Of a stretch of DNA of 64,000 bases, positions 42,131-64,000 are shown in pieces; position 1 is the stretch's first letter; each line of letters opens with the position of its first letter. The position numbers and the translations under genes were made by a program. Source of the DNA: Pseudomonadota bacterium (lineage in GTDB: Bacteria; Bdellovibrionota_F; JAHFAK01; JBDREC01); assembly GCA_043820105.1 (NCBI GenBank), contig JBDREC010000090.1, positions 1 to 64,000 of the forward strand. Reading direction: 5' to 3'. The notes under the pieces are model-generated. The model was not told the origin of the DNA. It ran no database searches and saw only the letters and a list, made by a program, of their open reading frames with translations.

Positions 42131-42132
42131 TT

Positions 42133-42160
42133 AGGGAACAAGGGAACAAGAGAACAAGGG
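42133..42160. repeat. Octamer array (AGRGAACA)x3.5 after the sdhA stop
   Basis: Related units at 20481-20507 and, reverse-complemented, at 34421-34440. Confidence 0.75.
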
Positions 42161-42200
42161 AAAACACATAAATTATTAAAAAAAAATAAGGAAGAAAAAA

Positions 42201-42920
42201 TTGGAAGAAATAATAATTAAAGTTTTTAGGTTTGATCCTGATGTTGATAAAAAGCATCACTTTGATAAATTTGTTGTTCCTTATGAAAGAGGAATGACAG
42301 TCCTTGATTGTTTGTTGTATATTCAAAGTCATCTTGATGGATCCTTGGCTTTTAGATATTCTTGCAGAGAAGGTGTTTGTGGAAGTTGTGCTATGCATAT
42401 TAATGGCAAATATCAATTAGCCTGCGAAGCTCAAGTCTCAGAACTTAAATCAAAATCTATTACTGTTAGGCCACTGGCACATTTACCAATTGTTCGAGAT
42501 CTTTTTGTTGATTTAGAACCATTTTGGGAAAAATATAAATTGATTAAACCTTATTTAATACCTGGCAAACCCAGTGTAGATGGTAAGGAAAGATTGCAAA
42601 AGGTTGAAGATAGGTCAAAACTTGATCAAATTGTTGATTGTATTTTATGTGGCTGTTGTTTTTCATCTTGTATGCTTACCAAAACAGATCCTAATTACAT
42701 TGGACCTGCTGCTTTAGCTAAAGCTGATCGCTTTGTGCTTGATTCAAGAGATTCCGCAACTGAAGAACGTTTAGCAATTATTGGTGGTGATGATGGTGTT
42801 TTTAAATGTCACACTATGTTTAATTGTCTGGAAGTCTGTCCAAAAGATGTTAATCCTACTAAAAGAATCGCTGATTTAAAAAATAAACTAGTTTGTTCAA
42901 AATATAAATTAGGCACTTAA
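42201..42920 (+). CDS. sdhB: Succinate dehydrogenase iron-sulfur subunit
   Basis: CREGVCGSC, CILCGCCFSSC, CHTMFNCLEVCP; TTG start. Confidence 0.93.
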   Translation: MEEIIIKVFRFDPDVDKKHHFDKFVVPYERGMTVLDCLLYIQSHLDGSLAFRYSCREGVCGSCAMHINGKYQLACEAQVSELKSKSITVRPLAHLPIVRDLFVDLEPFWEKYKLIKPYLIPGKPSVDGKERLQKVEDRSKLDQIVDCILCGCCFSSCMLTKTDPNYIGPAALAKADRFVLDSRDSATEERLAIIGGDDGVFKCHTMFNCLEVCPKDVNPTKRIADLKNKLVCSKYKLGT

Positions 42921-42963
42921 TTTTATTTCATAATTACTAAACTTAAATAAAAGGAGTTTAAGT

Positions 42964-44931: not shown

Positions 44932-44932
44932 T

Positions 44933-46165
44933 ATGTCTAGAGGAAAAATATTAGCAATGATTCTGGCAGGAGGGGAAGGCAAAAGGCTTGCTCCTCTTAC
45001 TAGAGACAGAGCAAAACCAGCAGTTCCCTTTGGTGGGAAATATAGGATTATAGACTTTGTGCTTAGCAATTTTGTTAATTCCGGCATTCTTAGAATAAAG
45101 GTTTTAACTCAATATAAGTCCTATTCATTAACTAATCATCTTATTCGAGGCTGGGCTCTTTCCCCATTTCTTGATAACTATGTTGAAGCTGTGCCTGCTC
45201 AAATGAGAAGAGGAAAGCACTGGTATCGTGGCAATGCTGATGCTATTTACCAAAGCATGAATATTATTACTGATGAAAGACCTGAGATTATAGCTGTTTT
45301 TGGCGGTGATCATATTTACAAAATGGACGTAAGGCAGATGGTCAATTTTCATGAAAAAAAGCTTGCTGATATGACTGTTGCTGCAATTCCTGTTCCAAAA
45401 GAATTGGCTAGTAGTTATGGAATTATTGAAGTTGATAATGATTGGAAAATGATAGGTTTTGAAGAAAAGCCTAAAGATCCAAAAACTATGCCTGGCAATA
45501 ATGACATGTGCCTTGCCTCAATGGGAAATTATGTTTTCTCGTCAGACCCTTTAATATGGGAGATTGAGCACGATGCTCAAAACGAAGATTCAGAACATGA
45601 TTTTGGAAAGAACATTGTAACAAATATGTTTGCAAAAGGAAAAGTATATGTTTATGACTTTTTCCAGAACAAAATTCCTAATCAACCAAAGTCTGAATTA
45701 GGCTATTGGCGTGATGTGGGAGATCTTGATATGTACTATCAGGCTAATATGGATCTTATTAGTGTTAATCCAATTTTTGATATATATAATGATCGATGGC
45801 CAATTCACTGTTCTATTCGAAAAAATCCGCCAACAAAATTTGTATTTTCAGACTATGCTAATCAAAGAGTAGGTGTAATGACTGATTCTCTGGTAGCAGG
45901 AGCTTGTATTATAAGTGGAGGTCATGTTCATAGGTCAATATTATTTCCCAATGTCAGGGTAAATAGTTACAGCAGAGTTGAAGATTCAATTGTTTTTGAT
46001 AATGTTAAAATTAATAGACACGCGAAAATTCGACGGGCCATTATAGATAAGAATGTTGTAATCCCAGAGGGCATGGAAATAGGATATGATCTGGAAAATG
46101 ATAAAAAACGCTTTCATGTTTCAAATGATGGAATTGTGGTAATTGCAAAAGGTACAAAACTTTAA
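44933..46165 (+). CDS. glgC: Glucose-1-phosphate adenylyltransferase
   Basis: [45 protein letters not shown]. Confidence 0.96.
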
Positions 46166-47220: not shown

Positions 47221-48741
47221 CTATTCTTCTTCTTCCAATTCTTCATCGTTACCTGCAATTGCTTCTTCAAAAGTTGCTATATGAGGAACAGGCAACAAAG
47301 GCATGGCCTCTGGAAATACATTTATGCCGCATCCAGAGTATACGTCTGAGCCAACAAAAGTTAGACCTGTTATAACATAATCAATATTACCTAGATCAGC
47401 CGGTGAAAATCTCACCTCAATCCCTTCTGCATCTTGTTCGCCATCAAAATCAATGTTTTCCTGTTTATTATAAGCATTATCTTTAAACCAGGAATAATGA
47501 CCTGCATTATTTTTACCATAACCATCTTCTCTTAAATCCCTTCTTAGGATTTTGCCTTTAATATTGCAATCTGTACCTCCAAGATCAATACCAGTAAGTG
47601 CAAAGTCATCAGTAAATTCAAAGGAAGTAGTTTTATTGATTTCCTCATCACCTGAATCAGAGCTTTTATAGGCATAATTTGTATTGCTTGTTTCCTCTGG
47701 AAGTACGCAGGTTCCTTCACCATTTCGATTATCTACAATTTCTTGCTTTACACCTTCTGATAATCTGCCATCAGGTAGAATTTCCTTGTATTTTACAAGG
47801 ACACAACTGATGTGTTTTGTGTTAAACTCATTTCTCGTGGGTTCGGGAAAGGCAGCTAAAAAGTCCATTTCATAATCATCCATAACAGCTTCCAACTCAA
47901 ATCCTACTATAACGCTTTTATCGTCGGATTTTGATTTAATTTCAATTAAACTTTCATCTGCTCTGGCTCCAATTGTTGCAACAGCATCGATACACATTAT
48001 TTCAACTATTGGAGCGAGAGCTGGATTTAATAACCCTGATATACATAAAACAGAAGCGACCCCTAAGTCAGCTTGATTATCATCAACAAAGGTTTGAGGA
48101 TCCATTATCATATTTGATGTAGCTAAATCCAGTTTCCATCCTTCTGAAAGATTAGTATTGCACTCTTTAATTAGATGTTCAAAATAGACTTCAAACGAAA
48201 GAGATCCATCATTATAATATTCAGAGTAATATTCCATGCAACAAACATCTGGATCAATGGTATCAAGACATATGGAACAGTAACCATCGAGTTCTTGTTC
48301 GGGATTGTAGCAGAAAGGATAATTATCTTGACCATTTGGAATGCCATCTTCATCGTCATCTGATTCTTCACATACATCACCAACTCCATTATTATTTGAA
48401 TCTTTCTGGTCTGGGTTGGCGTCATATCTGCAATTATCTTTGGTATCACTGAATCCATCACCATCTGTATCAATATTATCATATTGTGCATAACAAGCAT
48501 CATTACAGCTTGCAAGGCCTTCAAGATCATCCTGACTAAACTCAATTGTGCATTCAACAAGGCAAGCTTCCAGATTATCTTTTGAACCACCTGGTGAGTC
48601 TGGGATGATCCCTGGTCCTGGATTTCCAGGTTGGCCAGCGCCACCTGGAGTTTGCTCTCTTGGTTCTCTGTTGCTTTTGCCACATGAAGCAAGACTTAGG
48701 ATTATGATTAGGATTATAATTAAGAATAATGATTTTTTCAT
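47221..48741 (-). CDS. Lipoprotein with TSP3 repeats and putative beta-prism-like C-terminal domain
   Basis: Lipobox LASC; DNCRYDANPDQKD; VIVGF/FALTGI/YVITGL repeats resembling the C-terminus of the 29392 protein. Confidence 0.78.
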   Translation of the reverse strand: MKKSLFLIIILIIILSLASCGKSNREPREQTPGGAGQPGNPGPGIIPDSPGGSKDNLEACLVECTIEFSQDDLEGLASCNDACYAQYDNIDTDGDGFSDTKDNCRYDANPDQKDSNNNGVGDVCEESDDDEDGIPNGQDNYPFCYNPEQELDGYCSICLDTIDPDVCCMEYYSEYYNDGSLSFEVYFEHLIKECNTNLSEGWKLDLATSNMIMDPQTFVDDNQADLGVASVLCISGLLNPALAPIVEIMCIDAVATIGARADESLIEIKSKSDDKSVIVGFELEAVMDDYEMDFLAAFPEPTRNEFNTKHISCVLVKYKEILPDGRLSEGVKQEIVDNRNGEGTCVLPEETSNTNYAYKSSDSGDEEINKTTSFEFTDDFALTGIDLGGTDCNIKGKILRRDLREDGYGKNNAGHYSWFKDNAYNKQENIDFDGEQDAEGIEVRFSPADLGNIDYVITGLTFVGSDVYSGCGINVFPEAMPLLPVPHIATFEEAIAGNDEELEEEE

Positions 48742-48790: not shown

Positions 48791-48807
48791 AGCAAAGTTT
48801 GTGCCAA
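48791..48807 (-). promoter_or_regulatory. Consensus sigma54 promoter
   Basis: Minus strand TTGGCAC-AAACT-TTGCT, ~50 bp upstream of the ATG. Confidence 0.8.
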
Positions 48808-50443: not shown

Positions 50444-51904
50444 TTAATTATTATTCACAATATCTTGATAATATGTGTTTATTTCGGCTTCGTTGAGAAC
50501 TTCTGAATAGAGACGGAATTCTTTAATTATTCCTGAAAAATAATTTGCTATGTCATTATGTTTTCCCCAATATGCAACATTGCTTTCATCGCTATTTATT
50601 TTATATGCTCTACACGCCTGGCAAATTTGGTTTGATTCCAGGGTTTCATTGATAAAAATACTCAATTCACCATCGCTTAATGTAAGAGCTACTAGGTAAT
50701 CAGTGTTAGGAGTTAAGCTTCCAACTAAGTTGTCAGTTGAAATTTCTAAATCATTTTCATATCTGACTTTTGACCTAAGGCCATAATCTAAGCTTTCTTC
50801 ATTATATGTAAGCACTATGGCAATACTATTTGTTAAGGAAAATATTGGTAAGTTGCTATAATGTAGTCCCTCTATTTCATCAAAACTAAACCAAACTAGC
50901 ATAGAAAATTCATTTTGAATGGGGTAGGTAATATTATTATTATAACTTGCTTCTAAATAATAACTAGATCCATCAAAATATAAGCCTTTATTTTCATCCC
51001 AGCTTGAACTTCCGCCACTTACACTGGCATCAAAATTATTTAATGAATAGTCTTTAACTATGTTTCCTGCAAGTTCATCAAACTTTAAATAGTAAACCAG
51101 TGAGTTTTCAATTAAACTTTGAAATTCCGAATTATCTGTATTTTGGTTTTCTTCAGCTGTATTATTGTCTGTTTTATTATTAATGCTATTTGATGCAGTT
51201 GCTATAATTTGGCCAAGTTCATTTTCATTTAAACTAAGTTTTCCAAGATCAATCTCAGGCTCAACACTTGCTAGAGTAAGGTTTGATTGTGAATTCTCAT
51301 ATAGGGCTATTGCAAATCCAAGCTCTTTTTTTTCAGTTTCAAACTTGCTAGATTTTAAGTTTTCATTAAAAAGATCTTTTGTGAAATCATAAAATGGAAA
51401 TAGAATAAAAATTTTAAACTTGCTGTTTGTACTATAAAAAGAGGATTTAAGATTAAATTCTCCTGTTTGATTTTCAATAAGGGAAAAACTTGTTATGTTT
51501 TTAAGGTCATTTGCCATGAATAGATTTGATTCAATTTTTGTTTGGGTTAATTCATCATTAGTGGTTATAATAAATATGGCTCTATCAACACTAGTATTTT
51601 GTTTATTAAATTTAAAATAATTAGTAATATCTGGTCTAGGAATTCCGATTGGGGAAATAATACCATCTTTTAAATTTACTTCATCTTTGCTTAGCACTTC
51701 ATACTCTAGTAATATTTTTTCAAGCAGGGTGTTTTCTTGCGATGTGTCTAAACTTCCTGTTATATTAATATCAAATGTGGAAGAGTTTATTTCTTGACTG
51801 GACAGGTCATTTTCAAGGTCAGAATTGCTGCAATGGGTTGTTACTAAGATTTGGATTAATAAAAGAAATGCTAGTAATATGCTCTTCATCTGTTCCCTAA
51901 TCAT
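50444..51904 (-). CDS. Probable lipoprotein with C-terminal LamG/concanavalin-A-like domain
   Basis: LVYYLKFDE..G..VKDYS, LYFDG, YFSGIIKEFRLY; N-terminal signal ending in Cys. Confidence 0.78.
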   Translation of the reverse strand: MIREQMKSILLAFLLLIQILVTTHCSNSDLENDLSSQEINSSTFDINITGSLDTSQENTLLEKILLEYEVLSKDEVNLKDGIISPIGIPRPDITNYFKFNKQNTSVDRAIFIITTNDELTQTKIESNLFMANDLKNITSFSLIENQTGEFNLKSSFYSTNSKFKIFILFPFYDFTKDLFNENLKSSKFETEKKELGFAIALYENSQSNLTLASVEPEIDLGKLSLNENELGQIIATASNSINNKTDNNTAEENQNTDNSEFQSLIENSLVYYLKFDELAGNIVKDYSLNNFDASVSGGSSSWDENKGLYFDGSSYYLEASYNNNITYPIQNEFSMLVWFSFDEIEGLHYSNLPIFSLTNSIAIVLTYNEESLDYGLRSKVRYENDLEISTDNLVGSLTPNTDYLVALTLSDGELSIFINETLESNQICQACRAYKINSDESNVAYWGKHNDIANYFSGIIKEFRLYSEVLNEAEINTYYQDIVNNN

Positions 51905-52210
51905 GGCTTATGCTTTATAATAGCTCCTCATATCATATGTTTTTAATCCTGTAAACAAAAAATTAACTTTCATTTGTATGTTAAATTTATAAGAATTTAT
52001 AATTTTTAGCAGCAATGAAATTTTAAAAAATTTAAAAATGCATAACATATCAATTAGATATCATATAATCTTTTATTAAAATTAAGTTATTTATTTATGA
52101 AATCAGGGTGTGTTTAGTGAATCGTTAATTTAAAAAAAGATTGCACTTTGTGTTTATATGCTGTACAGAGTCAAAAAACATCAAATATAGATATAGATAA
52201 AAAGGGCAGC

Positions 52211-55200
52211 ATGAAGCATATTAATCAATTAATCTATGATTTTGAAATATCCTTACGAAAAGAAAATAAGCTTAATTCAAGTACAATCAATTTGTACAAA
52301 AAAAAGTTAAATGACTTTTCAAAAAATTTTAATGCAAATATTAAAATTGATGAGATTAGAAAAAAAGATCTAGATAAATTTTTACTTAAAATAAGAAATC
52401 AAAATTATTCAATTCAAACCTACAACCTATATATATCTGCTATTAAAGTATTTTACAAATATCTAAACATGAAATTTGATTTAGATGATTATGGGAAGTT
52501 AATAAAAAACAGGAAAAAAATTGAAACATGTGCAATCTCGACTGATAAAATTGAAGCATTTTTAAGTCTGATTAAAGATTTAGACGATTTCAGAAAAACT
52601 GCATTTTTAATGTATATCGTTCTTGGCTTAAAAGCAGATGTTATTTCAAAGTTAAAAAAAGATGATGTAATATTTGAAGAAGATAAAATAGGGATTTGTT
52701 TAAATAAAGACTATAAAACAGAAATCCTTTATTATGATTTATTAAGCAATAAATATGGGCTTAGGTTAAAAAGAGAGCTTCTTGAATTAATGAAGAAGTC
52801 AGACTTATATATTTTTGAAAATTCAAAATCTCTGCCTATAACTTCAGCAAGTTTTATTTATTTTTTCAAAAAGATAAAAGATGAACTTTCATTTAAAGTT
52901 GCTTCAATATTACAGCTTAGGTCAGAGGCTTTGCTTTTAAAAAAAGAAATTGAACTTGCTTGTGATCTGAAAAAAATGATACATCGCCGTTATAAGTTAT
53001 TGCGTCTCATAAAAGAAGGGGAAAATAGCAAAGTATATTTGGCGAAAGACCTAAAAAGAAATATCCCAGTAGCCTTTAAGCTTTTGCTAAGGGTTAACGA
53101 TAATCCAGAAAATATAATTAATTTTAAGAATGAATTTTCAATTGTTAAGAAATTAAATCATCCCCTTATTGCAAACATATATGATTTTGGATATTTAAAT
53201 GATATTAAAAAGTTTTATTATACAATGGAGTATATTGATTATAAACCACTTGAGAAATTGGCTTCTAAAATATCAGTATCCAATGCTTGTGCTATTTTAA
53301 ATGGTCTTTTATCTTTTTTAAAATATATGAGACAAAATAAATTACTCCATTATGATTTGAACACTAGAAATATTCTTTGCAGGATTCGTGAAAATGATAA
53401 TATTGATCTCAAAGTTGTTGATTTTGGTATGGCTTCGACTCCCAATGAGGCGACTGTCAAGGGAAGTTCAAAATTTATTGCGCCAGAAATATTGATTCAT
53501 AAAAAGTCTGACCTATCTTCTGATATATTTTCTGTAGGCGTTGTTATATATTATTTACTAACAAAAAAATTCCCTTTTGCAACGAGCAACTTTCAAGTAT
53601 ATTTTAATGATATTAAAAACAATAAGCTTGTTGATCTTTTTAGACATAATGAATCTGTTTCTTTGGAGTTTAATAAGATAATTATGAAGATGATAGCTTT
53701 AAATGTTAACAAAAGATATTGTGAGCCTGAAGAAATTCAGAAAGATTTATCAAAATTTATAGATCAAAATCTTCTCCTAAACCGCGATCTGTCATCAAAG
53801 ATAAATATAAGATACCCCAATTTTGTTGGTCGAAATCATGAACTGGATATTTTAAAAAATAATTTTAATATAATATTTTCTCCTTCATTAAAACAAGCAG
53901 ATATAAGTATTAATTTGATTTCTGGTGAATCTGGAATAGGCAAAAGTGCCATTATTGATGAAATGAAAAACTATGCAAATTTGTCTGAAATTAATTTTTT
54001 AGAATTAAATCTAGGACAAGAGGATCCTTATTTAAGTGTATTAAAATTCGTTTCAGCATTTTCTAAACTAAAACAAAAGCAACTTAAAATTTCTCCATAT
54101 GCAGCCAGCGCTTTAAAATCATCAGCTTTAGCAAAACTATCGGAATATTTATATAAAATAGTATCAAAATCAAAAGCAATACTAGTCATTAAAAATTCAG
54201 AATATATTTCAAAGGATTTAATAATATTTTTTAAGTTCTTTTTAGAAAATTTTTCAAATCTAAAATATTCTTTATTTATTATATTTTCCTTTAATTCTGA
54301 TCGCAAAAAAAGCAATCAACTTTTTGATTTGATAAATAGCAAGGTGCCTGAATATAGCAGAGTCAATGAGATCAATTTATCACCTTTGAGTAAGGAAGAA
54401 TGTTCAAAATTATTGTTTTCAATTTTAAATAGACCACCGGGCGATGATTTTCTTAATTATATTTATGATATTTGCGGAGGAAATCCTGGCTTAATAATGG
54501 CCCTGGTGCCATATTTACATGAAAAAGCACTTTTATTTATTAAAGAATTCTCTGTTTCTTTGAAATCAAAACCTGGATTGCTTCCTTCAAACATATTAGA
54601 GACAATTTCTGATCGTTTAAAATCTTTAAATCCTTTGCAAAGACAGATATTGTATTTACTTGCACTTGATGAGTTTACTCTAAATGTTAATCTTATATAT
54701 TCAATATTATTTTATACAACTTATGAACTAACTAGATTAGAAATATCATTAAATGTTGAAAACTTAATTAGGCGAAATTATATTTATTTAAAATCCCCAA
54801 TTACCAGTGCTTCTGCTAATAAAAATGCAAAACGCTCTGAAGATGCAGAGCTAGCTTTTACAAGTCGATTTGTAAAAGACAATATCAAGAAGTTTTTATT
54901 ACAAAAAGAAGCAAGGTCTCTTCATAAATCAATTGCTTTATTTATTGATGATACTAGTATTTTGGATAATAAAAATAAGGAAAGGCTGGCTTATCACTTA
55001 CTCCTGGCTAATGATAAAGCTGAGGCTATAAATTATTATAAAGAAATTGCTGATGAAAACTATGAAAGCGGCTATGTTTTTAAGGCAGCTAAAATCTATG
55101 ATATTATACTAAATTCCTTAAGACCACTAGATACTCGGAAAAAGGAAGAACTAGCAAAAGAAATATTAATAAGACTTGGCAATTTACATCTCAAATTAGC

Positions 55201-58075
55201 TGAATATAAAAAAGCAACAGAGTATTTACAAGCTGCAATAACAGGAGCTAGCACAAAAGAGAAAATAGAAATTAAAAAGTCATTTTCTCAAATGAAAATA
55301 AATCAGGGGTTTTTAGAAGAAGGTATTAAGGATATAGATGAAGTTATTATAATATCAAAGGAGGAAGCTTATAAAGATATATTTATAGAGGCAAACATTC
55401 TAAAGGCTTCGGCATTGTTAGGGCTGGCTAAGTATAATGAAGTATCATTGCTTCTAAAAAATATTCTAAGTACAAAGGTTTTAGAGGATAAATATAAATC
55501 AAAGCTATATAATTTGGCGGGCTTATTGGATTATTACAATAATAAACTCGATTGCTCATTAAAGAATTTTAAGCTTAGTTGTGATTATGCTACAAAATTA
55601 AAAGATCTACATGCTATTTCAAATGCCTATAATAATATTGGTCTAATTCACTATCAATTATCTGAATTCGAAGATGCGATAAAGTATTATAATGAATCTT
55701 TGCAAATTTCCAATAAAACATCTGACATTTTAGCAAGAGCCCAGGAGTATTCAAATATCGGCAGTTGCTATTTAAAGCTTGGCAAATTGGGAGATGCATT
55801 AAAAACATATCTTAAGTCTTATAATATTTTATTGAATCTGGATATGCCCAGGGAAACGGATTCAATTGCATTTAATATAGGGCTTATTTATTCAGAATTG
55901 GGTGATTATGAAAAGAGTGAACAATTTCGGCAGACTTCATTGTCCTTGGCTAGGGATAGAAGCAATAATCTTTTAATAGCTTATAATGAGTCTTTAAGTG
56001 GAGAACTTTTCTATAATATGTGTGAATATGAAAAGGCCATTGCATCCTATAAAAAAGCCTTTGATTTATTTGCAAACCTTGGCAATAATAGAGTTCATGC
56101 GGAAATTCTGATTAGTCTAGCTGCTTGTGAAAATCAATTAGGAAATCTTGAGGCATCAGAATCGTATATTTTAGCTGTCCTCAAAATTGGTGGAGATGAT
56201 TTAAAGACTAAGATTGAAGCCAATATTTTGTCAGCTAGAATTGCTCTTTCAAGATCAAATCACTCCTACTGCAAGTCAATTTTAGATGAAATTGAAGAAA
56301 TTGAAATGTCAAAGTTACACTATCTTACAAAGTTATTATATTTTGAAATATTTACACGATTCTATTTGAGCATTGGTGATATTAGAAAGTCAAAAAAAAG
56401 TGGGAAACAACTTGAAAAAATTCTTTATACTATAAAGGCAAATATTCCAGAATCAAAGAAAGCAAATTTTTTAAAAAACCCCAGAATTCAAATTGCCTCC
56501 GAAGTTTTATTTCAACTAAAATTGGCTGCAGATGGACTTTCAGATAGGAATAAGTTGAAATGTTTAATTGATATTAACTGGGAATTGTCTTCAGAAACGG
56601 ATATTCATAGACTTGGAAATATGGTCCTAGATAATGCGATTTTATTTAACCAAGCTAAAAGAGGTTTTGTTTTGTTAAAAAATAAGCAGTCATTTGATGT
56701 GCTTGTAGCTAGAAATTTCAAAAAAACAGATATAGATGACTGTATAAATGTTATTAGCTCAACGGTTTTTAAAGCCACCCTTGACCATGATATGATAATA
56801 AATATTCAAGATGCTTTTATGGAATTTGAAAATAGCGAAAGTATTCAGAAAGCAAATTTAAAAAGTATATTAAGTTTTCCTATAGTAGAAAACAATAAAC
56901 TAATTGGAGCAGTTTATTTAGATGATCCAACGAAAGTAGGAGCTTTTGCTCATGTTGATACTGAGATATTATCTTGCTTTGCAAGACAAGTATCAATAGC
57001 GATTTCAAATTCAAAATATATTGAAACAATTAAAAATAAAAAAGAGAAAATTGAAAAGATGGCCTCAGAGCTTGAGCAGAGATTACTAATAACTGATAAA
57101 AATTATGATATAGCTAATGAATCTTTTATAAAAAAAAGTAGGGATGAAAAAATAAAATATGATTATCAGAATATAATTACTAAAAGTCCTATGATGTTTG
57201 AGTTATTTGATATTATTGAAAAAGTTAAAGATGCTGATGTTTCAGTCTTAATTACAGGAGAGTCAGGTGTAGGCAAGGAGTTAATTGCAAGGGCAATACA
57301 TTTTGGTGGGAATAGGAAGGACAAAGCATTTTTTGCAGAAAACTGTGGAGCTATTACTGAAACAATTTTAGAAAGCGAACTCTTTGGTTATGTAAAGGGT
57401 GCTTTTACAGACGCGATAAGAGATAAACGTGGTATTTTTGAGTTAGCTAACGAAGGATCTATATTTTTAGATGAAATAGGTGAAATGTCTTTATCTATGC
57501 AAAAAAAATTACTAAGAGTTCTACAAAATAAGACAATAAGAAGAGTTGGTGGAAATAAATACCTTACTATTGATATTCGTGTTATTTGTGCTACAAATCG
57601 AAATTTATCTGAAATGATGAAAAATGAAAAATTTAGAGAAGATCTTTATTATAGGATTAATGTAATTGAAATAAATGTGCCAGCTCTTAGAGAGCGAAAA
57701 GAAGATATACCCTTGCTTGTGGATTATTTTTTAAAAAAACATGCCAGGGGTAAACCTAAAAAATTTACATCCTCATTGATTAATCTTTTTCAGAATTATA
57801 ATTGGCCTGGAAATGTAAGAGAGCTTGAAAATGAAGTAACAAAATTAATAACATTATCAACATCAGATACTATCACGCCTGAATTTCTACTCGAAAAGCA
57901 GAAGTTTGTAAGCTTTAACGAAAACACCCAAGCTCTATCACTTACTGAAATTGAGCAAAAGGCTATCAAAAAAGCTTATCACTTAGCAAATTATAACAAA
58001 ACAAAAACCGCTAAAATTTTAGGAATTAATATCAAAACTCTTTATTCAAAGCTTCACAAATATAAAATATCCTGA
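52211..58075 (+). CDS. Multidomain sigma54 activator: degenerate tyrosine recombinase, Ser/Thr kinase, STAND NTPase, TPR, GAF, sigma54 AAA+, Fis HTH
   Basis: ATG 52211; integrase core-binding helices, VAFK/HYDLN/DFG/APE, GESGIGKS, TPRs, GAF, GESGVGKE, GAFTDA, WPGNVREL, HTH. Confidence 0.85.
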   Translation: MKHINQLIYDFEISLRKENKLNSSTINLYKKKLNDFSKNFNANIKIDEIRKKDLDKFLLKIRNQNYSIQTYNLYISAIKVFYKYLNMKFDLDDYGKLIKNRKKIETCAISTDKIEAFLSLIKDLDDFRKTAFLMYIVLGLKADVISKLKKDDVIFEEDKIGICLNKDYKTEILYYDLLSNKYGLRLKRELLELMKKSDLYIFENSKSLPITSASFIYFFKKIKDELSFKVASILQLRSEALLLKKEIELACDLKKMIHRRYKLLRLIKEGENSKVYLAKDLKRNIPVAFKLLLRVNDNPENIINFKNEFSIVKKLNHPLIANIYDFGYLNDIKKFYYTMEYIDYKPLEKLASKISVSNACAILNGLLSFLKYMRQNKLLHYDLNTRNILCRIRENDNIDLKVVDFGMASTPNEATVKGSSKFIAPEILIHKKSDLSSDIFSVGVVIYYLLTKKFPFATSNFQVYFNDIKNNKLVDLFRHNESVSLEFNKIIMKMIALNVNKRYCEPEEIQKDLSKFIDQNLLLNRDLSSKINIRYPNFVGRNHELDILKNNFNIIFSPSLKQADISINLISGESGIGKSAIIDEMKNYANLSEINFLELNLGQEDPYLSVLKFVSAFSKLKQKQLKISPYAASALKSSALAKLSEYLYKIVSKSKAILVIKNSEYISKDLIIFFKFFLENFSNLKYSLFIIFSFNSDRKKSNQLFDLINSKVPEYSRVNEINLSPLSKEECSKLLFSILNRPPGDDFLNYIYDICGGNPGLIMALVPYLHEKALLFIKEFSVSLKSKPGLLPSNILETISDRLKSLNPLQRQILYLLALDEFTLNVNLIYSILFYTTYELTRLEISLNVENLIRRNYIYLKSPITSASANKNAKRSEDAELAFTSRFVKDNIKKFLLQKEARSLHKSIALFIDDTSILDNKNKERLAYHLLLANDKAEAINYYKEIADENYESGYVFKAAKIYDIILNSLRPLDTRKKEELAKEILIRLGNLHLKLAEYKKATEYLQAAITGASTKEKIEIKKSFSQMKINQGFLEEGIKDIDEVIIISKEEAYKDIFIEANILKASALLGLAKYNEVSLLLKNILSTKVLEDKYKSKLYNLAGLLDYYNNKLDCSLKNFKLSCDYATKLKDLHAISNAYNNIGLIHYQLSEFEDAIKYYNESLQISNKTSDILARAQEYSNIGSCYLKLGKLGDALKTYLKSYNILLNLDMPRETDSIAFNIGLIYSELGDYEKSEQFRQTSLSLARDRSNNLLIAYNESLSGELFYNMCEYEKAIASYKKAFDLFANLGNNRVHAEILISLAACENQLGNLEASESYILAVLKIGGDDLKTKIEANILSARIALSRSNHSYCKSILDEIEEIEMSKLHYLTKLLYFEIFTRFYLSIGDIRKSKKSGKQLEKILYTIKANIPESKKANFLKNPRIQIASEVLFQLKLAADGLSDRNKLKCLIDINWELSSETDIHRLGNMVLDNAILFNQAKRGFVLLKNKQSFDVLVARNFKKTDIDDCINVISSTVFKATLDHDMIINIQDAFMEFENSESIQKANLKSILSFPIVENNKLIGAVYLDDPTKVGAFAHVDTEILSCFARQVSIAISNSKYIETIKNKKEKIEKMASELEQRLLITDKNYDIANESFIKKSRDEKIKYDYQNIITKSPMMFELFDIIEKVKDADVSVLITGESGVGKELIARAIHFGGNRKDKAFFAENCGAITETILESELFGYVKGAFTDAIRDKRGIFELANEGSIFLDEIGEMSLSMQKKLLRVLQNKTIRRVGGNKYLTIDIRVICATNRNLSEMMKNEKFREDLYYRINVIEINVPALRERKEDIPLLVDYFLKKHARGKPKKFTSSLINLFQNYNWPGNVRELENEVTKLITLSTSDTITPEFLLEKQKFVSFNENTQALSLTEIEQKAIKKAYHLANYNKTKTAKILGINIKTLYSKLHKYKIS

Positions 58076-58152: not shown

Positions 58153-60339
58153 ATGAAAAGAAAGCTTAATTTAGCATTTTTATGGCATATGCATCAACCC
58201 AATTATAGGGTTAATGATAAGCATAAGGCTCAATTGCCTTGGGTTCGTCTGCATTGTATTAGAGCCTATTATGATATGGCAAGAATGGCTTTTAAATATC
58301 CTGATCTTAAAATGGTTTTTAATTTTGTGCCATCCTTATTGTTGCAAATTCAAAAGCTTGCTTCAGTTGAATCTTTGACAGACTTTGAAAACAATAATGA
58401 TTTAGATATTTATTGTGATTATACCTTGCGGGAGCCTGGCGATTTAAGCGCGAGCGATAAAAAATTCATTGTTGATAACTTTTTCCAGATAAATGAAGCA
58501 ATTATTAGAAAATATAAAAGATATTCTTTTTTATTAGATAAAAAAAATACTTATTCAAGCACTGCTCATCTTGAATTTTCTAATGAAGAAATTCAAGACC
58601 TCCAGGCTCTTTTTAATCTGGCATGGTTTGGTTTTTCAGCATTTGCTGAAGATACAGTGCTTAGTGAGCTTGCAGAGAAGGGGGAAAAGTTTAATAGAGA
58701 AGATATTGAAGCCATTATTTCAAAACAACTTGAAATATCTAAACAAATTATTCCTTTATATAAAGAACTGCAGAAACTTAAGATTTGCGAAATATCTACA
58801 ACTCCATTTTATCATCCTATAATGCCGCTTTTGCTTAACACTGAAAATTCTCTGCGCTCCAGACCAAATGCACCTGTGCCCTCAATTGAAAACATGGCTA
58901 TGGATGTAAAAAAGCACTTGGAATTATCAAAAGAATATTGCGCAAAGGTATTTGATGTAGAAAGCACAGGCCTATGGCCCTCAGAGGGTTCAGTTTGTCC
59001 TGAGCTTATACCAATAGTTTCTGAAATGAATTTTAAATGGATGGCAACCTGCAATGGGGTTTTAAGAAAGTCAAAAGATGAACATGGGAATTATATTGAA
59101 GAAAGCAAGACCTATGGTTATCATAATGTAAAACACGGATCATCAGCCATTCCAATGGTTTTTCGGGATCGATGGCTGTCAGATAGGTTTGGATTTGATT
59201 ATTATAAAATGGGAGCAAATCAGGCTGTTGAAGAATTTATATCTTGTATAAAGGGAAAGGATAATAAGGATTCTTCAATACCTAATTTAATTCCAATTAT
59301 TTTAGATGGTGAAAATCCTTGGGAATATTATGAAAATAGTGGCCTTGATTTTCTTGAAATACTTTACTCAAGACTATCCAGTGACCCAAATATAGATGTC
59401 CTTTCATTAGGAGAATATATTACCCAAAATGAACCTCTTGGTGAAGTTCATGCTCTGCATTCTGGTTCCTGGATCAATGCTGATTATAAAATATGGATTG
59501 GTGGGGAATGTGAAAATAGTGCCTGGAAGTGTCTTGAAAAAACTAGGTCTTTTTTAAATAAAATCTGCTCTGGAGAAAAACCTCATGCCTCTAAAGAATC
59601 TTGTAAAGATGAAATCCTTCATTCAATGCTATCAGCTGAAGGTAGTGATTGGTTTTGGTGGTATGGGGATGATTTTGAATCAAGCACAAAATTAATTTTT
59701 GATGATCTTTTTAGAGCTCATCAGGCAAATATTTTTAATAAAGCCAAAATCGAAATTCCAGCTTATCTTGAGCAGCCAATTGTGCAAAAAAGAAGCCTTG
59801 ATGTTGTCATGGCTCCAAAAGCTTTTATTTCTCCACATATTGATGGAATTGAAAGTCACTTTTTTGAATGGGTTGGAGCTGGAAGATATAACGCACTAAT
59901 TGACTCATCAGCAATGGCACAATCACAAAAGCTTATTGAAAAAATATTTTATGGTTTTGATCTTTCAAATATTTATTTGAGAATAGATTTTCAAAATGAG
60001 AATGTTTATGAAGAAGGATATGAGGTTTTAATTTCATTTTCAGGAAAGAGGGAATATAAAATTTCATTTAAACTTGGTGGAAAATCAATGTATACGCTTT
60101 ATAGAAGCGATGATTGGCTTTCATATACTCCAGTATGCGAGTCTGATAAAATAGAGTTTGGAAAATGTGTTGAGCTTGCCCTGCCATTAGAGTTTACAGA
60201 TTTTAAAAAGCAAGAAATTGTCAATATGAGTTTTACGATTATTCAAAATGAAAAACAGATAGCTAGATATCCTATTAAGACAAAGATTGAACTTCAGATT
60301 CCATCAGAGGAATTTGAAGATATGAACTGGATGGCGTGA
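58153..60339 (+). CDS. Glycoside hydrolase family 57 (amylopullulanase-like)
   Basis: WHMHQP, YHPIMPLL, WPSEG (nucleophile), LDGEN, AEGSDWFWW. Confidence 0.92.
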   Translation: MKRKLNLAFLWHMHQPNYRVNDKHKAQLPWVRLHCIRAYYDMARMAFKYPDLKMVFNFVPSLLLQIQKLASVESLTDFENNNDLDIYCDYTLREPGDLSASDKKFIVDNFFQINEAIIRKYKRYSFLLDKKNTYSSTAHLEFSNEEIQDLQALFNLAWFGFSAFAEDTVLSELAEKGEKFNREDIEAIISKQLEISKQIIPLYKELQKLKICEISTTPFYHPIMPLLLNTENSLRSRPNAPVPSIENMAMDVKKHLELSKEYCAKVFDVESTGLWPSEGSVCPELIPIVSEMNFKWMATCNGVLRKSKDEHGNYIEESKTYGYHNVKHGSSAIPMVFRDRWLSDRFGFDYYKMGANQAVEEFISCIKGKDNKDSSIPNLIPIILDGENPWEYYENSGLDFLEILYSRLSSDPNIDVLSLGEYITQNEPLGEVHALHSGSWINADYKIWIGGECENSAWKCLEKTRSFLNKICSGEKPHASKESCKDEILHSMLSAEGSDWFWWYGDDFESSTKLIFDDLFRAHQANIFNKAKIEIPAYLEQPIVQKRSLDVVMAPKAFISPHIDGIESHFFEWVGAGRYNALIDSSAMAQSQKLIEKIFYGFDLSNIYLRIDFQNENVYEEGYEVLISFSGKREYKISFKLGGKSMYTLYRSDDWLSYTPVCESDKIEFGKCVELALPLEFTDFKKQEIVNMSFTIIQNEKQIARYPIKTKIELQIPSEEFEDMNWMA

Positions 60340-60378
60340 TAAGTGGTAAGGGGTAAGTGGTAAGTGGTAAGTGGTAAG
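60340..60378. repeat. Heptamer array (TAAGTGG)x5.5 directly after the GH57 stop
   Basis: Direct reading; same unit as 7564 and 8662. Confidence 0.9.
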
Positions 60379-60470
60379 ATTTGTTTTTGGTGAGAGATGT
60401 GATGAGCTGCAAGCTTATTTTTATAATTAGTTAATATTCAATTCTTGATTAAAAAAAGAAAGAAGAATAA

Positions 60471-61853
60471 ATGATGTATGATTTGATTATAAAAAACGGA
60501 ACCATCTTGACTTCACAAAAAATCTTTAAATCTGAGATTGCTGTAAAAAATGAAAAAATTGTGGAAATTGCTAAGAAAATTCAAGGTTCAGCTAAGGAAG
60601 TAATTGACGCCAGTGGGCTTTATGTAATGCCAGGAGGCATTGATGTGCATGTGCATTTTGAAAATGTGTTTTCAGGTTATACTATAGCTGATGATTTTGA
60701 GTCAGGTTCTATTTCAGCAGCTGCTGGTGGGGTGACAACGTTTATAGATTTCGCTAATCAAGACCCCAAGACTGGCCTTTTAGGCGGAGTCAAGCAGCGC
60801 ATTGCTCAAGCTGCAAAGAAGTCATGTGTCGATTTCTCAGTGCATGCAACTATTACAGATTGGTCATTAAAAACAAAAAAACAAATGCAAGCTTGCATTG
60901 ATTTTGGGGTGCCTTCTTTTAAGATGTTTACTATCTATGAAGAAAGAGGACTAAAATCAGAAGACCATGAAATATTTCAGGCCTTAGAAGAATCAAAGAA
61001 AAAAGGTGCTTTAATTATGATTCATGCTGAATCTGAAAAAGTCATGAATCATCTTATTGAAAAATATTCAAAAGATATGAAAAAATTTGGAGCTTATGCG
61101 CACGCTTTATCACGTCCTAACTATATTGAAGCCGAAGCTGTTTCGCGCATGATTAAGTGGGCTGAAGTTACTAAAGGAAATTTGTACATTGTTCATATGT
61201 CAACAGGTGAGGCGAGTGATTTAATTAAAAACGCGAAATCAAAAGGCTTAAATGTTGATGCAGAAACTTCCCCGATATATTTAACTTTAACTGATGATTT
61301 ATTTAAAAAAGAAAATGGCCACTTCTATGCCACTTGCCCACAGCTTAAAAAGAAAAAGGATTGCACAAGGCTTTGGCAAGGCTTAAAAGCTGAAATTGAG
61401 ATAATCTCAACTGATACCTGCCCATTTTCGATAAAAGACAAGAATAAGTGGAAGGGCGATTTTCGAAAGATTGCTTATGGACTTCCTGGTGTTGAAACCA
61501 TGATTCCTATTTTGTATACTGAAGGTGTATTAAAAGAAAAGGTGAGTCTTAAAAGATTTGTTTCATTAGTTTCAGAAAATCCTGCTAAAAAATTTGGGCT
61601 TTATCCGAAAAAAGGTTGTATAGAGGTTGGAGCAGACGCTGACTTTACAATCTTTCATCCAACAAAGAAAAAACTTGTTAAAGCCAAAAACCTAAAATCA
61701 AAATGTGACTTTTCACCATTTGAAGGCAAGAAGTTGGCAGCCTTTCCTGAATATACAATTTTACGAGGAAGGACAATTTATCAAAATGAACAGTGTTTTG
61801 CCTCAAAAGGATCAGGGAAGTTGTTAAGAAGAAAACTTTTAATAAAACGATAA
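60471..61853 (+). CDS. hydA: Dihydropyrimidinase/D-hydantoinase
   Basis: PGGIDVHVH, SFKMF, HAE, HMST, GLPGVET, KKG..EVGADAD. Confidence 0.88.
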   Translation: MMYDLIIKNGTILTSQKIFKSEIAVKNEKIVEIAKKIQGSAKEVIDASGLYVMPGGIDVHVHFENVFSGYTIADDFESGSISAAAGGVTTFIDFANQDPKTGLLGGVKQRIAQAAKKSCVDFSVHATITDWSLKTKKQMQACIDFGVPSFKMFTIYEERGLKSEDHEIFQALEESKKKGALIMIHAESEKVMNHLIEKYSKDMKKFGAYAHALSRPNYIEAEAVSRMIKWAEVTKGNLYIVHMSTGEASDLIKNAKSKGLNVDAETSPIYLTLTDDLFKKENGHFYATCPQLKKKKDCTRLWQGLKAEIEIISTDTCPFSIKDKNKWKGDFRKIAYGLPGVETMIPILYTEGVLKEKVSLKRFVSLVSENPAKKFGLYPKKGCIEVGADADFTIFHPTKKKLVKAKNLKSKCDFSPFEGKKLAAFPEYTILRGRTIYQNEQCFASKGSGKLLRRKLLIKR

Positions 61854-61899
61854 TTCGTCAAAACAAGGTCCTAAAAATATAGGAGTTGTTTTTTTAATA

Positions 61900-63483
61900 T
61901 TATTTTACAAGCACTACTGTAACCCAATACTGTGATTTTTTAGACCCTTCAGTTATGCCTACTCCATAATATTTCCATTCGGTTTTTGGTGGAATAAATG
62001 AATCAAGAAAGCTTATATCGTTAACTTTGTAGACTTGACCCCATACAGATCTAATACCATATTTGGCAACTTTAACTTTTTGAAAAAGATTTCCATAGTT
62101 AAGATTTGTGTCTACTTTATCTTCTTCAATCATCAGTTTAGTATGAATTTTGCATATTTTTGAGATTAGTGCATCTTCTTTTATTGCAGAATTAATTGAA
62201 GAGATTCTTTCTAAAATACTATTATTTAGTAAATCAAAACCTAATTCATCTGTTCTTTGAGCAAAGTTTTGAGTTATAACATAGACTCTTTTTCCATTTT
62301 CTTTTTTCACAAAGATTCCTGCTCCAGCATCACTTAAGTCTGGATCCATAATATTTCCCCTATGCGCTGGACTTTCCATTAATTTGTGAACAGCCTCAAA
62401 AATTGATTCATTTTTAGCGAGGTTTTCTGTAACTTTTACATAAAGAAAGCTAAGTCCTCTTGATCTTTGCTCAAGGGTGCTGCCGTTTCTTGAAACATGA
62501 CCAAAAAAATTATTGCGTGCCATATCTTCTGAATGAAGTCTCGCCATATTTCGCAATTCTTCATTAAAAATAAGTGGGTTTAAGTTCATTTTCTTTCTTA
62601 TATCATTAACAAGCTGAAAGAACTTGTTTTCTGCTTCTTCTATACTATTATAGATTTCTGGTTCATTTGGCATCATCTTTTTATCTCTTTCGTTTTCAGC
62701 TGAATATGGAATATCCACAAAGATTGGAAAAAGGTTTGCTACAGTGGGACCAAATTGAGTTGTGACCATTAGTTCCATTTTATATCTTCCAGATTTTTCA
62801 TTTAAAATAAGTTCACCTGAAAAATTGTTTCCTGAAACATTTAATGGATATTGATTAACCTTGCCTGATGGCGTTGTTGTATATATTTTAGGATTTTTAA
62901 CTTGTGAAAAGAGTTTACCAGATATTTTAATTGGCTTTGCTTCTTTTATTTCCTTTGGAATTGGTGATAGTTCTACAAATCTTTTTAATATAACTATTGT
63001 TCCAATGTATTCATCGTTTATGGAGCTAATCCCCATTCCAAATGTATCAAATTTGCTTTCTTTAATTTTTTTGGAAAGAGCTTTTGCAAGTGATACTTTA
63101 GTTTTTATTAAAAACGATTTTAAAGATGAAGAGGAACTTACAATGGCATGTGGAAAATATTTCGCTTCGCTAATTCCATTTATTAATAGTTCTGTTTGAA
63201 TTAGATCTCTATCTAAGGATGGATTGCTGGAGTTGATTGATTTATTAATGTTTCTGGTGGCATTAACGATTCTTTTATCTAAATAAAAAGGGGTTTGAGC
63301 ATTGAGTTTTCTAACCTTTAATAACCAGGTTGATATTTCTTTTTCGATAGCATTTAATTGTAGAGAATCTTGTTCTTGTGGATTGTTATAAAGGCTTTGC
63401 CCTAGACTTGTGATAGGGCTAGAAAACAAGCATATGACCAGGAATAGGACTAATTTTAAAGATAAAAAAGATTGTTTAATCAT
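61900..63483 (-). CDS. Exported CAP/SCP-domain protein
   Basis: LVNDIRK, ARLHSEDM..NFFGH, ENLA, LMESPAHRGNI; start taken at ATG 63483. Confidence 0.85.
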   Translation of the reverse strand: MIKQSFLSLKLVLFLVICLFSSPITSLGQSLYNNPQEQDSLQLNAIEKEISTWLLKVRKLNAQTPFYLDKRIVNATRNINKSINSSNPSLDRDLIQTELLINGISEAKYFPHAIVSSSSSLKSFLIKTKVSLAKALSKKIKESKFDTFGMGISSINDEYIGTIVILKRFVELSPIPKEIKEAKPIKISGKLFSQVKNPKIYTTTPSGKVNQYPLNVSGNNFSGELILNEKSGRYKMELMVTTQFGPTVANLFPIFVDIPYSAENERDKKMMPNEPEIYNSIEEAENKFFQLVNDIRKKMNLNPLIFNEELRNMARLHSEDMARNNFFGHVSRNGSTLEQRSRGLSFLYVKVTENLAKNESIFEAVHKLMESPAHRGNIMDPDLSDAGAGIFVKKENGKRVYVITQNFAQRTDELGFDLLNNSILERISSINSAIKEDALISKICKIHTKLMIEEDKVDTNLNYGNLFQKVKVAKYGIRSVWGQVYKVNDISFLDSFIPPKTEWKYYGVGITEGSKKSQYWVTVVLVK

Positions 63484-64000
63484 GTAAAATGAGATCCTTT
63501 TTCTTAGCAATTTCACTTTCAATTGTTTTTAAAATTTTACTGTTTTTTACATCAGCCTTATCATTGTCTACAATTTTAGATTTTAAATCTTCCAAAAAAG
63601 CGATGTCATTATTGGCTCTACTGTTAATTGATTCTATCAAATTATTAACAGGTTCAACAAAGCTTTTAAGCTCATCGAATTTTCTTAAGTTGCCAATTTT
63701 TCTAAGTTTGCCAGAGGCAATATCTTCCATGGATTTCATTATTCGAAACGCAGGGCCTGCAATTTTATGGGTTAACAACGTCCCCAAAATGAAAAGACTG
63801 AAAATTTGAACTATAAAAAATGTAATAAGATAATATAAGGTAAAATTATCTTCTTGTTCAACCATGCTTTGCAGTTCAAAATTCTGAATTGAAAGCAGAT
63901 CAGTTGCTTCTAATGAGGTTGTATAAAAATGATAACCCAGCAGTACATAAATAAGAGAACAAACTGCAATAACTATTAATGTATATTTAATCTGAAACTT
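63476..64000 (-). CDS. Membrane HAMP-domain protein (5' end beyond the window)
   Basis: Frame open to 64000 (KFQIKY...); THKIAGPAFRI, LRKFDEL. Confidence 0.7.
   Translation of the reverse strand, partial: KFQIKYTLIVIAVCSLIYVLLGYHFYTTSLEATDLLSIQNFELQSMVEQEDNFTLYYLITFFIVQIFSLFILGTLLTHKIAGPAFRIMKSMEDIASGKLRKIGNLRKFDELKSFVEPVNNLIESINSRANNDIAFLEDLKSKIVDNDKADVKNSKILKTIESEIAKKKDLILHD

Follow-up and report, generated by a model that had tools for sequence, protein, structure and literature searches.

The window analysed here is a stretch of 64,000 nucleotides (nt), positions 1 to 64,000 of contig JBDREC010000090.1 in an assembly of a Pseudomonadota bacterium (GCA_043820105.1), and it carries on the forward strand a single open frame from 52148 to 58075. 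The ATG start at 52211 is preceded by a Shine-Dalgarno-like run (AAAGGG) and is aligned with the MK... starts of the paralogs described below, giving a product of 1954 amino acids (aa) in which a tyrosine-recombinase-like module (residues 1-240) is followed by a Ser/Thr kinase, a STAND P-loop, TPRs, a GAF domain, a sigma-54 AAA+ domain, and a Fis-type helix-turn-helix (HTH) (Table 1). A preliminary description of the locus had called it one continuous open reading frame (ORF), as is confirmed here; all of the strings that it singled out (STINLYKKKLNDF, SIQTYNLYISAIKVFYKYL, LMYIVLGLKADVISKLKKDDV, LQLRS, KEGENS, HYDLNTRN, and GAFTDA) are contained in the product. A hydropathy scan predicted no transmembrane segment in the protein, and NCBIfam models gave generic sigma-54 activator and kinase similarity only, all below equivalog cut-offs. 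The gene probably encodes a cytoplasmic, multi-input bacterial enhancer-binding protein (a sigma-54 activator), and the explanation developed below, taken as a whole, is one that we regard as evenly poised between right and wrong.

Fold, catalytic residues, and output domains

Residues 1-240 are a tyrosine-recombinase core-binding domain followed by the N-terminal two thirds of the catalytic domain, an identification that holds because Pfam, sequence and profile searches of the PDB, an AlphaFold2 (AF2) model, and two fold comparisons all agree; the XerC/D layout first proposed for this part of the protein is thereby borne out. Phage_int_SAM_1 (PF02899) matches residues 10-85 with E 1.9e-9 in the full-length protein, and with E 2.9e-11, exceeding the cut-off, when residues 1-260 are scanned alone. 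The catalytic-domain model PF00589 (172 positions) has no match in the window copy, even at E<=10; it matches three of the eight paralogs, over model positions 3-121 only, one of them above the curated cut-off (31.1 bits). In the PDB, phmmer found the XerC-like 4a8e_A (E 4.5e-5, residues 25-172) and also XerA, and a profile built from the aligned modules of the eight paralogs (A2) matched 4a8e over positions 4-203 (E 6.8e-10) and XerD (1a0p, E 2.3e-4).

The structural comparisons give the same answer. An AF2 model of residues 1-240 built on A2 has a predicted local distance difference test score (pLDDT) of 85.3 and a predicted template modelling score (pTM) of 0.53. Foldseek with this model, the fold check that had been proposed for residues ~1-250, returned 63 matches at E<=1e-3 and finds the integrase fold present; all of the matches listed are tyrosine recombinases, including lambda Int, XerA, Tn1549 Int, Cre, XerH, XerD, and IntI. 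With VIA-align, residues 1-101 superimpose on isolated core-binding domains (Z 14.5; root mean square deviation, rmsd, 1.9 Å over 99 residues to 3nrw) and residues 109-240 on topoisomerase IB catalytic domains (Z 9-10, rmsd about 3 Å). Residues 101-240 are also spanned when the whole model is aligned with XerD, lambda Int, and Cre. The end of the model falls level with position 244 of XerD, 308 of lambda Int, and 289 of Cre, in each case taken to be the HxxR His.

The module is catalytically dead, unable to cut, rejoin, or recombine DNA, because Arg-I is replaced, the HxxR box has decayed, and the segment with His/Trp-III and the Tyr nucleophile is absent. We assigned the catalytic residues by aligning the modules with the three Xer-type proteins of the same genome. 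Arg-I is replaced in all eight paralogs (K/N/N/S/S/K/S/N; Lys141 in the window copy), and the HxxR box reads LQLRS in the window copy and L/I/M-x-L/V-K/R-S/N/A in the others, with L, I, or M at the His-II position and R (two paralogs) or K (six) at Arg-II. After this remnant the alignment finds neither His/Trp-III nor the Tyr nucleophile segment in any of the eight, and the linker and kinase start ~20 residues further on in seven, the STAND part doing so in paralog 5. The changes of GLR to GLK and of HxLRH to LQLRS, and the end before the Tyr, had all been pointed out in the preliminary description and are reproduced by the Xer alignment, the last of them also by the ends of the structural alignments. 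Active tyrosine recombinases have a complete catalytic domain, the Arg-I/His-II/Arg-II/His/Trp-III set, and the Tyr nucleophile; the module has none of the three and was rejected as a member of that class. It shares with XerC, XerD, and XerA (4a8e, 1a0p, and 5hxy) the core-binding fold, the first ~130 residues of the catalytic fold, and a basic character, but lacks Arg-I, an intact HxxR, and the last ~55-60 residues (with His/Trp-III and Tyr), and is fused to ~1700 further residues.

The kinase domain scores 133 bits with PF00069, against a cut-off of 31.7, and the window copy keeps the VAIK Lys (AFK), the alphaC Glu, HxD with its Asn (HYDLNTRN), DFG, and APE. The Gly-rich loop, KEGENSKV, departs from GxGxxG and is degenerate in four of the seven kinase-bearing paralogs, the window copy included, and kinase activity is therefore uncertain. 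AAA_16 scores 46.7 bits, above its cut-off, and the STAND Walker A is intact (GESGIGKS); Walker B has no acidic residue in the window copy (LVIKN) or in paralog 3, and has one in the other six. The atypical Gly loop (KEGENS) and the degenerate Walker B had been noted in the preliminary description, as had the catalytic loop, which keeps its HxD and Asn. The helical middle region (residues 801-975) has no Pfam match, a weak TPR_14 match (E 2.3e-4, residues 984-1010) lying just beyond its end. Pfam recovers each of the further parts that had been listed after the P-loop (TPRs, GAF, AAA+ domain, and HTH). The sigma-54 AAA+ domain, placed at 57173-57673 by a profile search of the genome, has GESGVGKE, FLDEIGE, and the conserved Arg residues expected of Walker and Arg-finger motifs. 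Its L1 loop is GAFTDA (window about 57398-57415); Asp occupies position 5 in seven of the eight paralogs (GAFTDA, GSFTDA, or GAYTDA), one has the canonical GAFTGA, and within the genome the Asp variant is confined to this giant family (7 of 29 motif matches).

The genome supplies what such an output needs, in that an HTH_8 domain, one rpoN, and -24/-12 promoter-like sites are all present. There are 208 TGGYAY-N5-TTGCW sites genome-wide, compared with 12-25 at other spacings and three with the sequence reversed, and 136 of the 208 lie within 300 nt of an ORF start (<=300 nt). The genome also has 32 PF00158 matches, and sigma-54 appears to be a major sigma factor in it. These observations bear on the idea that the protein defends against phage as a STAND (Avs/NLR-like) system with effectors at its N-terminus, and does not activate transcription. 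Such a role would suit the STAND NTPase, its TPR sensor array, and the extra N-terminal domains, and two PADLOC kinase models (PD-T4-6 and mad6) match the kinase domain; however, the best 25 of 31 PADLOC matches are generic kinase or RtcR-like AAA+ and none is STAND/Avs, the complete sigma-54 AAA+ and HTH_8 output is the most conserved part of the family (mean identity 0.58), and the genome has both rpoN and the ~200 promoter-like sites. PADLOC gave no matches on the relative of the protein in genome G002 (see below). We consider a defence function very unlikely.

Table 1. Features of the 1954-aa protein and of the neighbouring genes (window coordinates unless a locus is named).
Feature	Coordinates	Strand	Basis
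Core-binding (SAM-like) domain, residues 1-100	52211..52510	+	Phage_int_SAM_1, VIA-align, AF2 pLDDT ~85-94
Partial recombinase catalytic domain, inactive, residues 101-240	52511..52930	+	4a8e profile match, VIA-align, Xer alignment
Linker, residues 241-258	52931..52984	+	Among least conserved segments, mean pairwise identity 0.27; pLDDT 60-68 in AF2 model of residues 1-540
Hanks-type Ser/Thr kinase, residues 259-520	52985..53770	+	Pfam Pkinase 261-504, E 1.4e-38
STAND-type P-loop NTPase, residues 535-800	53813..54610	+	Pfam AAA_16 537-640, E 6.4e-12
Helical middle region, residues 801-975	54611..55135	+	Mean paralog identity 0.26
TPR array, residues 976-1440	55136..56530	+	Pfam TPR_12, TPR_1, TPR_2, TPR_MalT; matches ~980-1330
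GAF domain, residues 1463-1598	56597..57004	+	Pfam GAF_2 1463-1598, GAF 1520-1598
Sigma-54 AAA+ domain and lid, residues 1655-1896	57173..57898	+	Sigma54_activat 1655-1821, E 3.8e-71; AAA_lid_14, E 1.1e-20
Fis-type HTH (HTH_8), residues 1911-1951	57941..58063	+	Pfam HTH_8, E 4.1e-9
Sigma-54 promoter-like site TGGCACAAACTTTGCT	48791..48806	-	49 nt upstream of TSP_3 gene
506-aa exported lipoprotein-like protein, thrombospondin type 3 repeats	47221..48741	-	Pfam TSP_3, E 1.6e-12
Divergent 5' neighbour, 486-aa exported lipoprotein-like protein, Laminin_G_3	50444..51904	-	Hydrophobic N-terminus then Cys25
5' neighbours of the other seven paralogs	L015:13293-14900; L016:13278-14717; L017:5023-6378; L018:11879-13255; L019:5342-6829; L020:4096-6009; L021:4912-6462

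Paralogs, relatives, and distribution of the fused gene

The source genome (G000; 3.81 Mb, 113 contigs, 32% G+C) contains eight uninterrupted ORFs with the same N-terminus on seven contigs, 1948-1965 aa long except for one of 1661 aa, and overall 31-43% identical; the fused gene appears to have expanded here to these eight paralogs. All eight have Phage_int_SAM_1, AAA_16, TPR, Sigma54_activat, AAA_lid_14, and HTH_8, while Pkinase and GAF are each found in seven. The short one, paralog 5 (G000:C54:14626-19611; L018:6627-11612, minus strand), is missing the whole kinase, its module running directly into the STAND NTPase, and it provides a natural deletion variant that would be useful experimentally. 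The eight modules fall in one clade of the tree with a Shimodaira-Hasegawa-like approximate likelihood ratio test (SH-aLRT) support of 100, and none has internal stops or deletions. A shorter relative of the giant family may be encoded at G000:C108:629-4099 (+), where the N-terminal part of a 1156-aa ORF with a sigma-54 domain resembles the mid/TPR region of the giant family; it is without recombinase, kinase, or P-loop part.

Relatives with the same head are found in G001 and G002, which belong to a different family and are the only two other genomes of the order (the phylum is represented by four species-level genomes in our collection, G000-G003). Each encodes one of a pair of orthologous 1015-1019-aa proteins (G001:C44, L033:1124-4183; G002:C23, L022:2934-5981) that are 45% identical and have a dead recombinase head. 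Their N-termini match A2 at E about 1e-16, better than do the Xer proteins of those genomes, and contain Phage_int_SAM_1 with a partial Phage_integrase match (positions 7-135 of 172; 34.6 bits in G001, above cut-off). Aligned with the giant family by hhalign, the two proteins match across the junction and into the kinase N-lobe (1-323 against 1-307, probability 97.8, E 1e-12); beyond the head a weak colinear similarity continues through the kinase N-lobe, STAND, and TPR parts. They give no Pkinase, sigma-54, or HTH Pfam match, the rest of each protein being without a Pfam match above cut-off, and there is no sigma-54 ORF longer than 600 aa in either genome. The G002 gene overlaps the end of a 440-aa upstream ORF.

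The fusion of a recombinase N-terminus to a kinase-STAND-TPR-GAF-sigma-54 activator, as first described for this locus, can be taken as real on the support that paralogs and orthologs give to the junction. An assembly or frameshift error that joined a recombinase pseudogene to a regulator gene would fit with the exact protein being found on one contig of one assembly only, but the same junction recurs in eight independent ORFs on seven contigs at 31-43% identity and, by the hhalign match, in the two other genomes of the order; we give this explanation next to no chance.

The module also appears to be under constraint, functional rather than decaying, because its conservation matches that of the sensor domains, and because it persists in paralog 5 in the absence of the kinase and in G001 and G002 in the absence of the sigma-54/HTH output. 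Mean pairwise identities among the paralogs are 0.34 for the core-binding domain and 0.395 for the N-terminal part of the catalytic domain, with 0.35 for the kinase, 0.29 for STAND, 0.29 for TPR, and 0.38 for GAF. That the head is a relic—left from a recombinase gene captured upstream and now a functionless folded spacer that the protein tolerates—would agree with the loss of all catalytic function and with the confinement of the family to one order; yet the module is intact in all eight paralogs in spite of their divergence, it is conserved at least as well as the STAND and TPR parts, and it is retained in two further genomes, so that we find the relic explanation improbable.

No recombinase-headed carrier was found outside the order in the databases searched (up to ~15 billion proteins), in line with the earlier statement that no such version was known. 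Residues 1-260, used in a word-seeded search of 5.8 billion clusters, gave three matches, and A2, run against the longer proteins of that database, gave five; in both searches every match came from this genome. An exhaustive HMMER search with A2 of 1.84 billion representatives of ~15 billion proteins returned 9112 matches at E<=1e-3, of which five, at E<=1e-30, are this genome's paralogs (1661-1965 aa), and the next match falls from 306 to 96 bits. Among the best 150 of the 9112 matches, which is the part considered here, the other 145 are all <=818 aa; weak fused forms like the G001 and G002 proteins would rank below these. The best non-self matches to the module profile, among the matches listed, are 517-818-aa recombinases (P0007, P0008, P0009, and P0036) with the unusual arrangement of two to four tandem SAM-like core-binding domains followed by one complete catalytic domain. 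Residues 255-1450 retrieved 118 proteins, PF02899 being present in three, all from this genome, and the ESM Atlas searched with residues 1-540 gave plain kinase clusters only.

The remainder of the protein has relatives elsewhere, as the preliminary description had stated for kinase-ATPase-TPR-GAF-sigma-54 activators. Seven outside proteins from uncultured bacteria (P0152, P0179, P0206, P0220, P0235, P0242, and P0255; 1585-2058 aa) have Pkinase and Sigma54_activat, most of them with AAA_16, TPR, and GAF. P0152 (1700 aa) aligns over 1-1699 with residues 253-1953 at 27% identity, and the known architecture therefore begins exactly where the recombinase-like head ends. These Pkinase-AAA_16-TPR-GAF-Sigma54_activat-HTH_8 activators share the domain order from the kinase onward, but none has a recombinase-like head, and their L1 loops are GAFTGA, GAFTHA, or GSFTHA, not GAFTDA. 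The only class-level relative, G003, encodes a 1395-aa Pkinase(13-250)-TPR-Sigma54_activat-HTH_8 protein (G003:C334, L034:1062-5249) that is likewise similar in domain order from the kinase on and differs in having no recombinase-like head; it has no AAA_16 match, and the genome has 28 PF00158 matches.

The simplest history would be one in which a recombinase fragment was joined once, in the ancestor of the order, to a pre-existing kinase-STAND-TPR(-GAF-sigma-54-HTH) protein, and the product then expanded in this genome and decayed in the other lineage. The tree places the G001 and G002 modules in one clade and the G000 modules in another (support 100 each) and does not settle whether the two are sisters; it is because the hhalign match crosses the junction that a common origin of the fusion is proposed.

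Genomic surroundings

The immediate 5' gene of each of the eight paralogs encodes a predicted exported lipoprotein-like protein of 451-637 aa, with a hydrophobic N-terminus followed by a Cys; five are divergent and three are on the same strand. A loose lipoprotein-like pattern is present in seven of these eight neighbours, against 268 of 2523 ORFs in the genome (about 10.6%); the window neighbour (50444-51904) has Cys25 and fails the pattern. Three neighbours, that in the window included, have Laminin_G_3, one has TSP_3, and one has RCC1 repeats. A weak N-terminal similarity is common to six, and the window neighbour is weakly similar at its N-terminus to the neighbours of paralogs 4 and 7; those of paralogs 6 and 8, themselves a mutual-best pair, are homologous throughout (E 1.7e-55). 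The pairing of activator and lipoprotein-like gene is real; the latter might itself be a target, might be co-regulated as a partner, or might belong to the signal path.

A relaxed scan of intergenic regions found no sigma-54 promoter before the neighbours of paralogs 1, 4, 5, 7, and 8, that in the window included; there is a 10-of-11 match upstream of the paralog 3 neighbour, and a full match that points away from the paralog 6 neighbour. Because promoters are absent before most of them, the adjacent lipoprotein-like genes are not established as sigma-54 targets. The only TGGYAY-N5-TTGCW site in the window with a downstream ORF is that at 48806 on the minus strand, before the exported TSP_3 protein gene. 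An activator may well act on this candidate site, though nothing links it to the 1954-aa protein in particular. An exported-protein regulon had been suggested as the target of the activator; the exported neighbour 5' of all eight paralogs and the site before the TSP_3 gene are in keeping with this, and the lack of a promoter before the window neighbour is not.

The regions 5' of the eight paralogs share no 9-mer, and inverted repeats (arms of 9-12 nt with <=1 mismatch, spacers of 2-12 nt) occur upstream of paralogs 2 and 3 only. This bears on a further proposal of the preliminary description, that the head senses the state of the chromosome or of mobile elements by reading dif/att DNA, FtsK, or phage integrases, and couples it to sigma-54 transcription. 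The Xer-like ancestry of the module is the only support for it. A single chromosome-dimer signal is unfit because the eight diverged paralogs are scattered over seven contigs, at unrelated loci; moreover, no dif-like or att-like repeat is shared near them, and the genome keeps complete Xer-type recombinases of its own. The C-terminal region of Xer proteins serves partner and FtsK control, and by structural alignment it is the part that the module does not have. Such coupling was thus not upheld, and we judge it highly improbable.

Other genes near the paralogs include a Rad52/22-family protein ~3.5 kb from paralog 3 (L016:16105-16713, minus strand) and an RNase_T exonuclease plus GIY-YIG protein directly 3' of paralog 8 (L021:12475-14160, minus strand). 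The window flanks (40406-46165 and 58153-63522) hold ordinary genes, one with an SdhA/FrdA-like flavoprotein, a GTP-dependent phosphoenolpyruvate carboxykinase, and a GlgC-like nucleotidyl transferase, the other with a GH57 glycoside hydrolase, an amidohydrolase, and a CAP-domain protein.

Possible role of the recombinase-like head

Conservation, charge, and retention of the module together suggest that it serves as a non-catalytic head that binds or bends DNA, a reading for which we put the chances at about even. The module has a net charge of +10 to +18 and a pI of 8.7-9.7, with both halves basic in all eight copies; in this it resembles the Xer proteins of the same genome and the HTH domains (seven of eight), the mid, TPR, and GAF parts being mostly neutral or acidic. 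No other nucleic-acid-binding fold can be recognised in the proteins of G001 and G002. There is a precedent in TnsF of Tn6022, an inactivated tyrosine-recombinase derivative that selects and probably bends target DNA (Faure et al. 2023, PMC10293859). The likeness to TnsF of Tn6022-like Tn7 transposons, which is drawn from the described role of an inactivated recombinase and not from sequence comparison, lies in a recombinase-derived domain without a catalytic pocket acting as the DNA-recognising or bending part of a larger machine. TnsF, however, selects targets for a transposon and has zinc fingers at its N-terminus along with core-binding-like domains in tandem, whereas the module here is the N-terminus of an activator.

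Several points weigh against a DNA-binding head. No repeat or inverted repeat is shared upstream of the paralogs, basic charge is common in a genome of 32% G+C, and the kinase of the window copy also has a charge of +12. The missing helices complete the catalytic fold and make recombinase-recombinase contacts, and a DNA clamp may not close without them. The HTH would already bind DNA, and a second DNA-binding domain is not required. The models (pTM 0.52-0.53) do not define a domain arrangement, and with an L1 loop of GAFTDA, not GAFTGA, activity on sigma-54 is assumed.

The head could instead be a protein-protein or regulatory module that docks on the kinase, STAND, or AAA+ part or recruits a partner, DNA binding having been lost with catalysis. 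In STAND proteins effector or adaptor domains are usually N-terminal, which is where the module sits, and loss of the C-terminal helices would, judging from the structural alignment, expose a surface that they normally cover. In an AF2 model of residues 1-540, comprising module and kinase (pLDDT 81.7, pTM 0.52), residues 221-250 reach a pLDDT of about 80, 80, and 68, compared with 67 and 51 for the module modelled alone, as might be expected if the two parts touched; however, the pTM of this model gives no fixed interdomain contact or arrangement. The module is moreover basic in every copy, equally conserved in the kinase-less paralog 5, and kept in the G001 and G002 proteins, and because it is retained where each partner is missing it does not seem to depend on either the kinase or the sigma-54/HTH output. 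We rank such a role second, as possible but doubtful.

If the module is retained as a DNA-binding or bending head in the manner of TnsF, every paralog would touch DNA at a further point in addition to the Fis-type HTH at its C-terminus, and this contact might, for example, fix or bend enhancer DNA for looping to a sigma-54 promoter. Whether the AAA+ ring assembles and hydrolyses ATP would be controlled by the kinase, by the STAND NTPase and its TPR array, and by the GAF domain. The paralogs would probably serve one locus each, marked by the adjacent exported lipoprotein-like gene. More tentatively, and with the weight of our doubts against it, we suggest that in this deep and thinly sampled bacterial order a recombinase lost its active site and came to serve a family of giant sigma-54 activators as their sequence-specific DNA clamp or bender, and that the paralogs co-diversified with the neighbouring lipoprotein-like genes as dedicated sensor-target pairs.

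Parts of this arrangement are familiar from other regulators. AfsR/SARP-type and MalT-type STAND regulators join a STAND NTPase and TPR-like repeats to a DNA-binding output (N-terminal in AfsR), and Mycobacterium tuberculosis PknK combines a kinase with a MalT-like region; two SARP-STAND-TPR proteins, P0250 and P0258, were among the weak matches in the search with residues 255-1450. The likeness to AfsR/SARP, MalT, and PknK lies in the STAND NTPase, TPR-like sensor, and DNA-binding output, with a kinase also in PknK, but those proteins use OmpR-like or LuxR-type DNA binding and are not known to have a sigma-54 AAA+ output or a recombinase-derived domain. Tyrosine recombinases are normally enzymes of mobile elements and of chromosome segregation. 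The domesticated tyrosine-recombinase genes that animals derived from Cryptons (Kojima and Jurka 2011, PMC3212892) resemble the present case in that a tyrosine recombinase was exapted into a host protein for a role other than recombination; they are eukaryotic and transposon-derived with unrelated partner domains, unlike the head of a bacterial activator. A search of the literature outside subscription journals and supplements turned up no account of a sigma-54 activator headed by a recombinase or a kinase, and the terms Pkinase, protein kinase, integrase, and recombinase are all absent from a survey of sigma-54 regulons (PMC12316311). The kinase-STAND-TPR-GAF-sigma-54 architecture is known but little studied, and the exapted recombinase head is the new element.

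The family is restricted to one order in a phylum of four species-level genomes, which limits its reach unless a DNA-binding role is shown; it nonetheless offers a natural series for domain dependence, with eight paralogs, one of them kinase-less, and two orthologs without the sigma-54 output. A dead recombinase within an activator would extend the short list of exaptations, TnsF and the animal Crypton-derived genes, to bacterial signal transduction, and the head would give a new DNA-binding module for sigma-54 enhancer complexes. Should the DNA clamp be real, one polypeptide would join enhancer recognition, IHF-like DNA bending, STAND/kinase/GAF gating, and sigma-54 remodelling, and it would stand first, among the cases found in the literature, as a bacterial transcription factor derived from an exapted recombinase fold.

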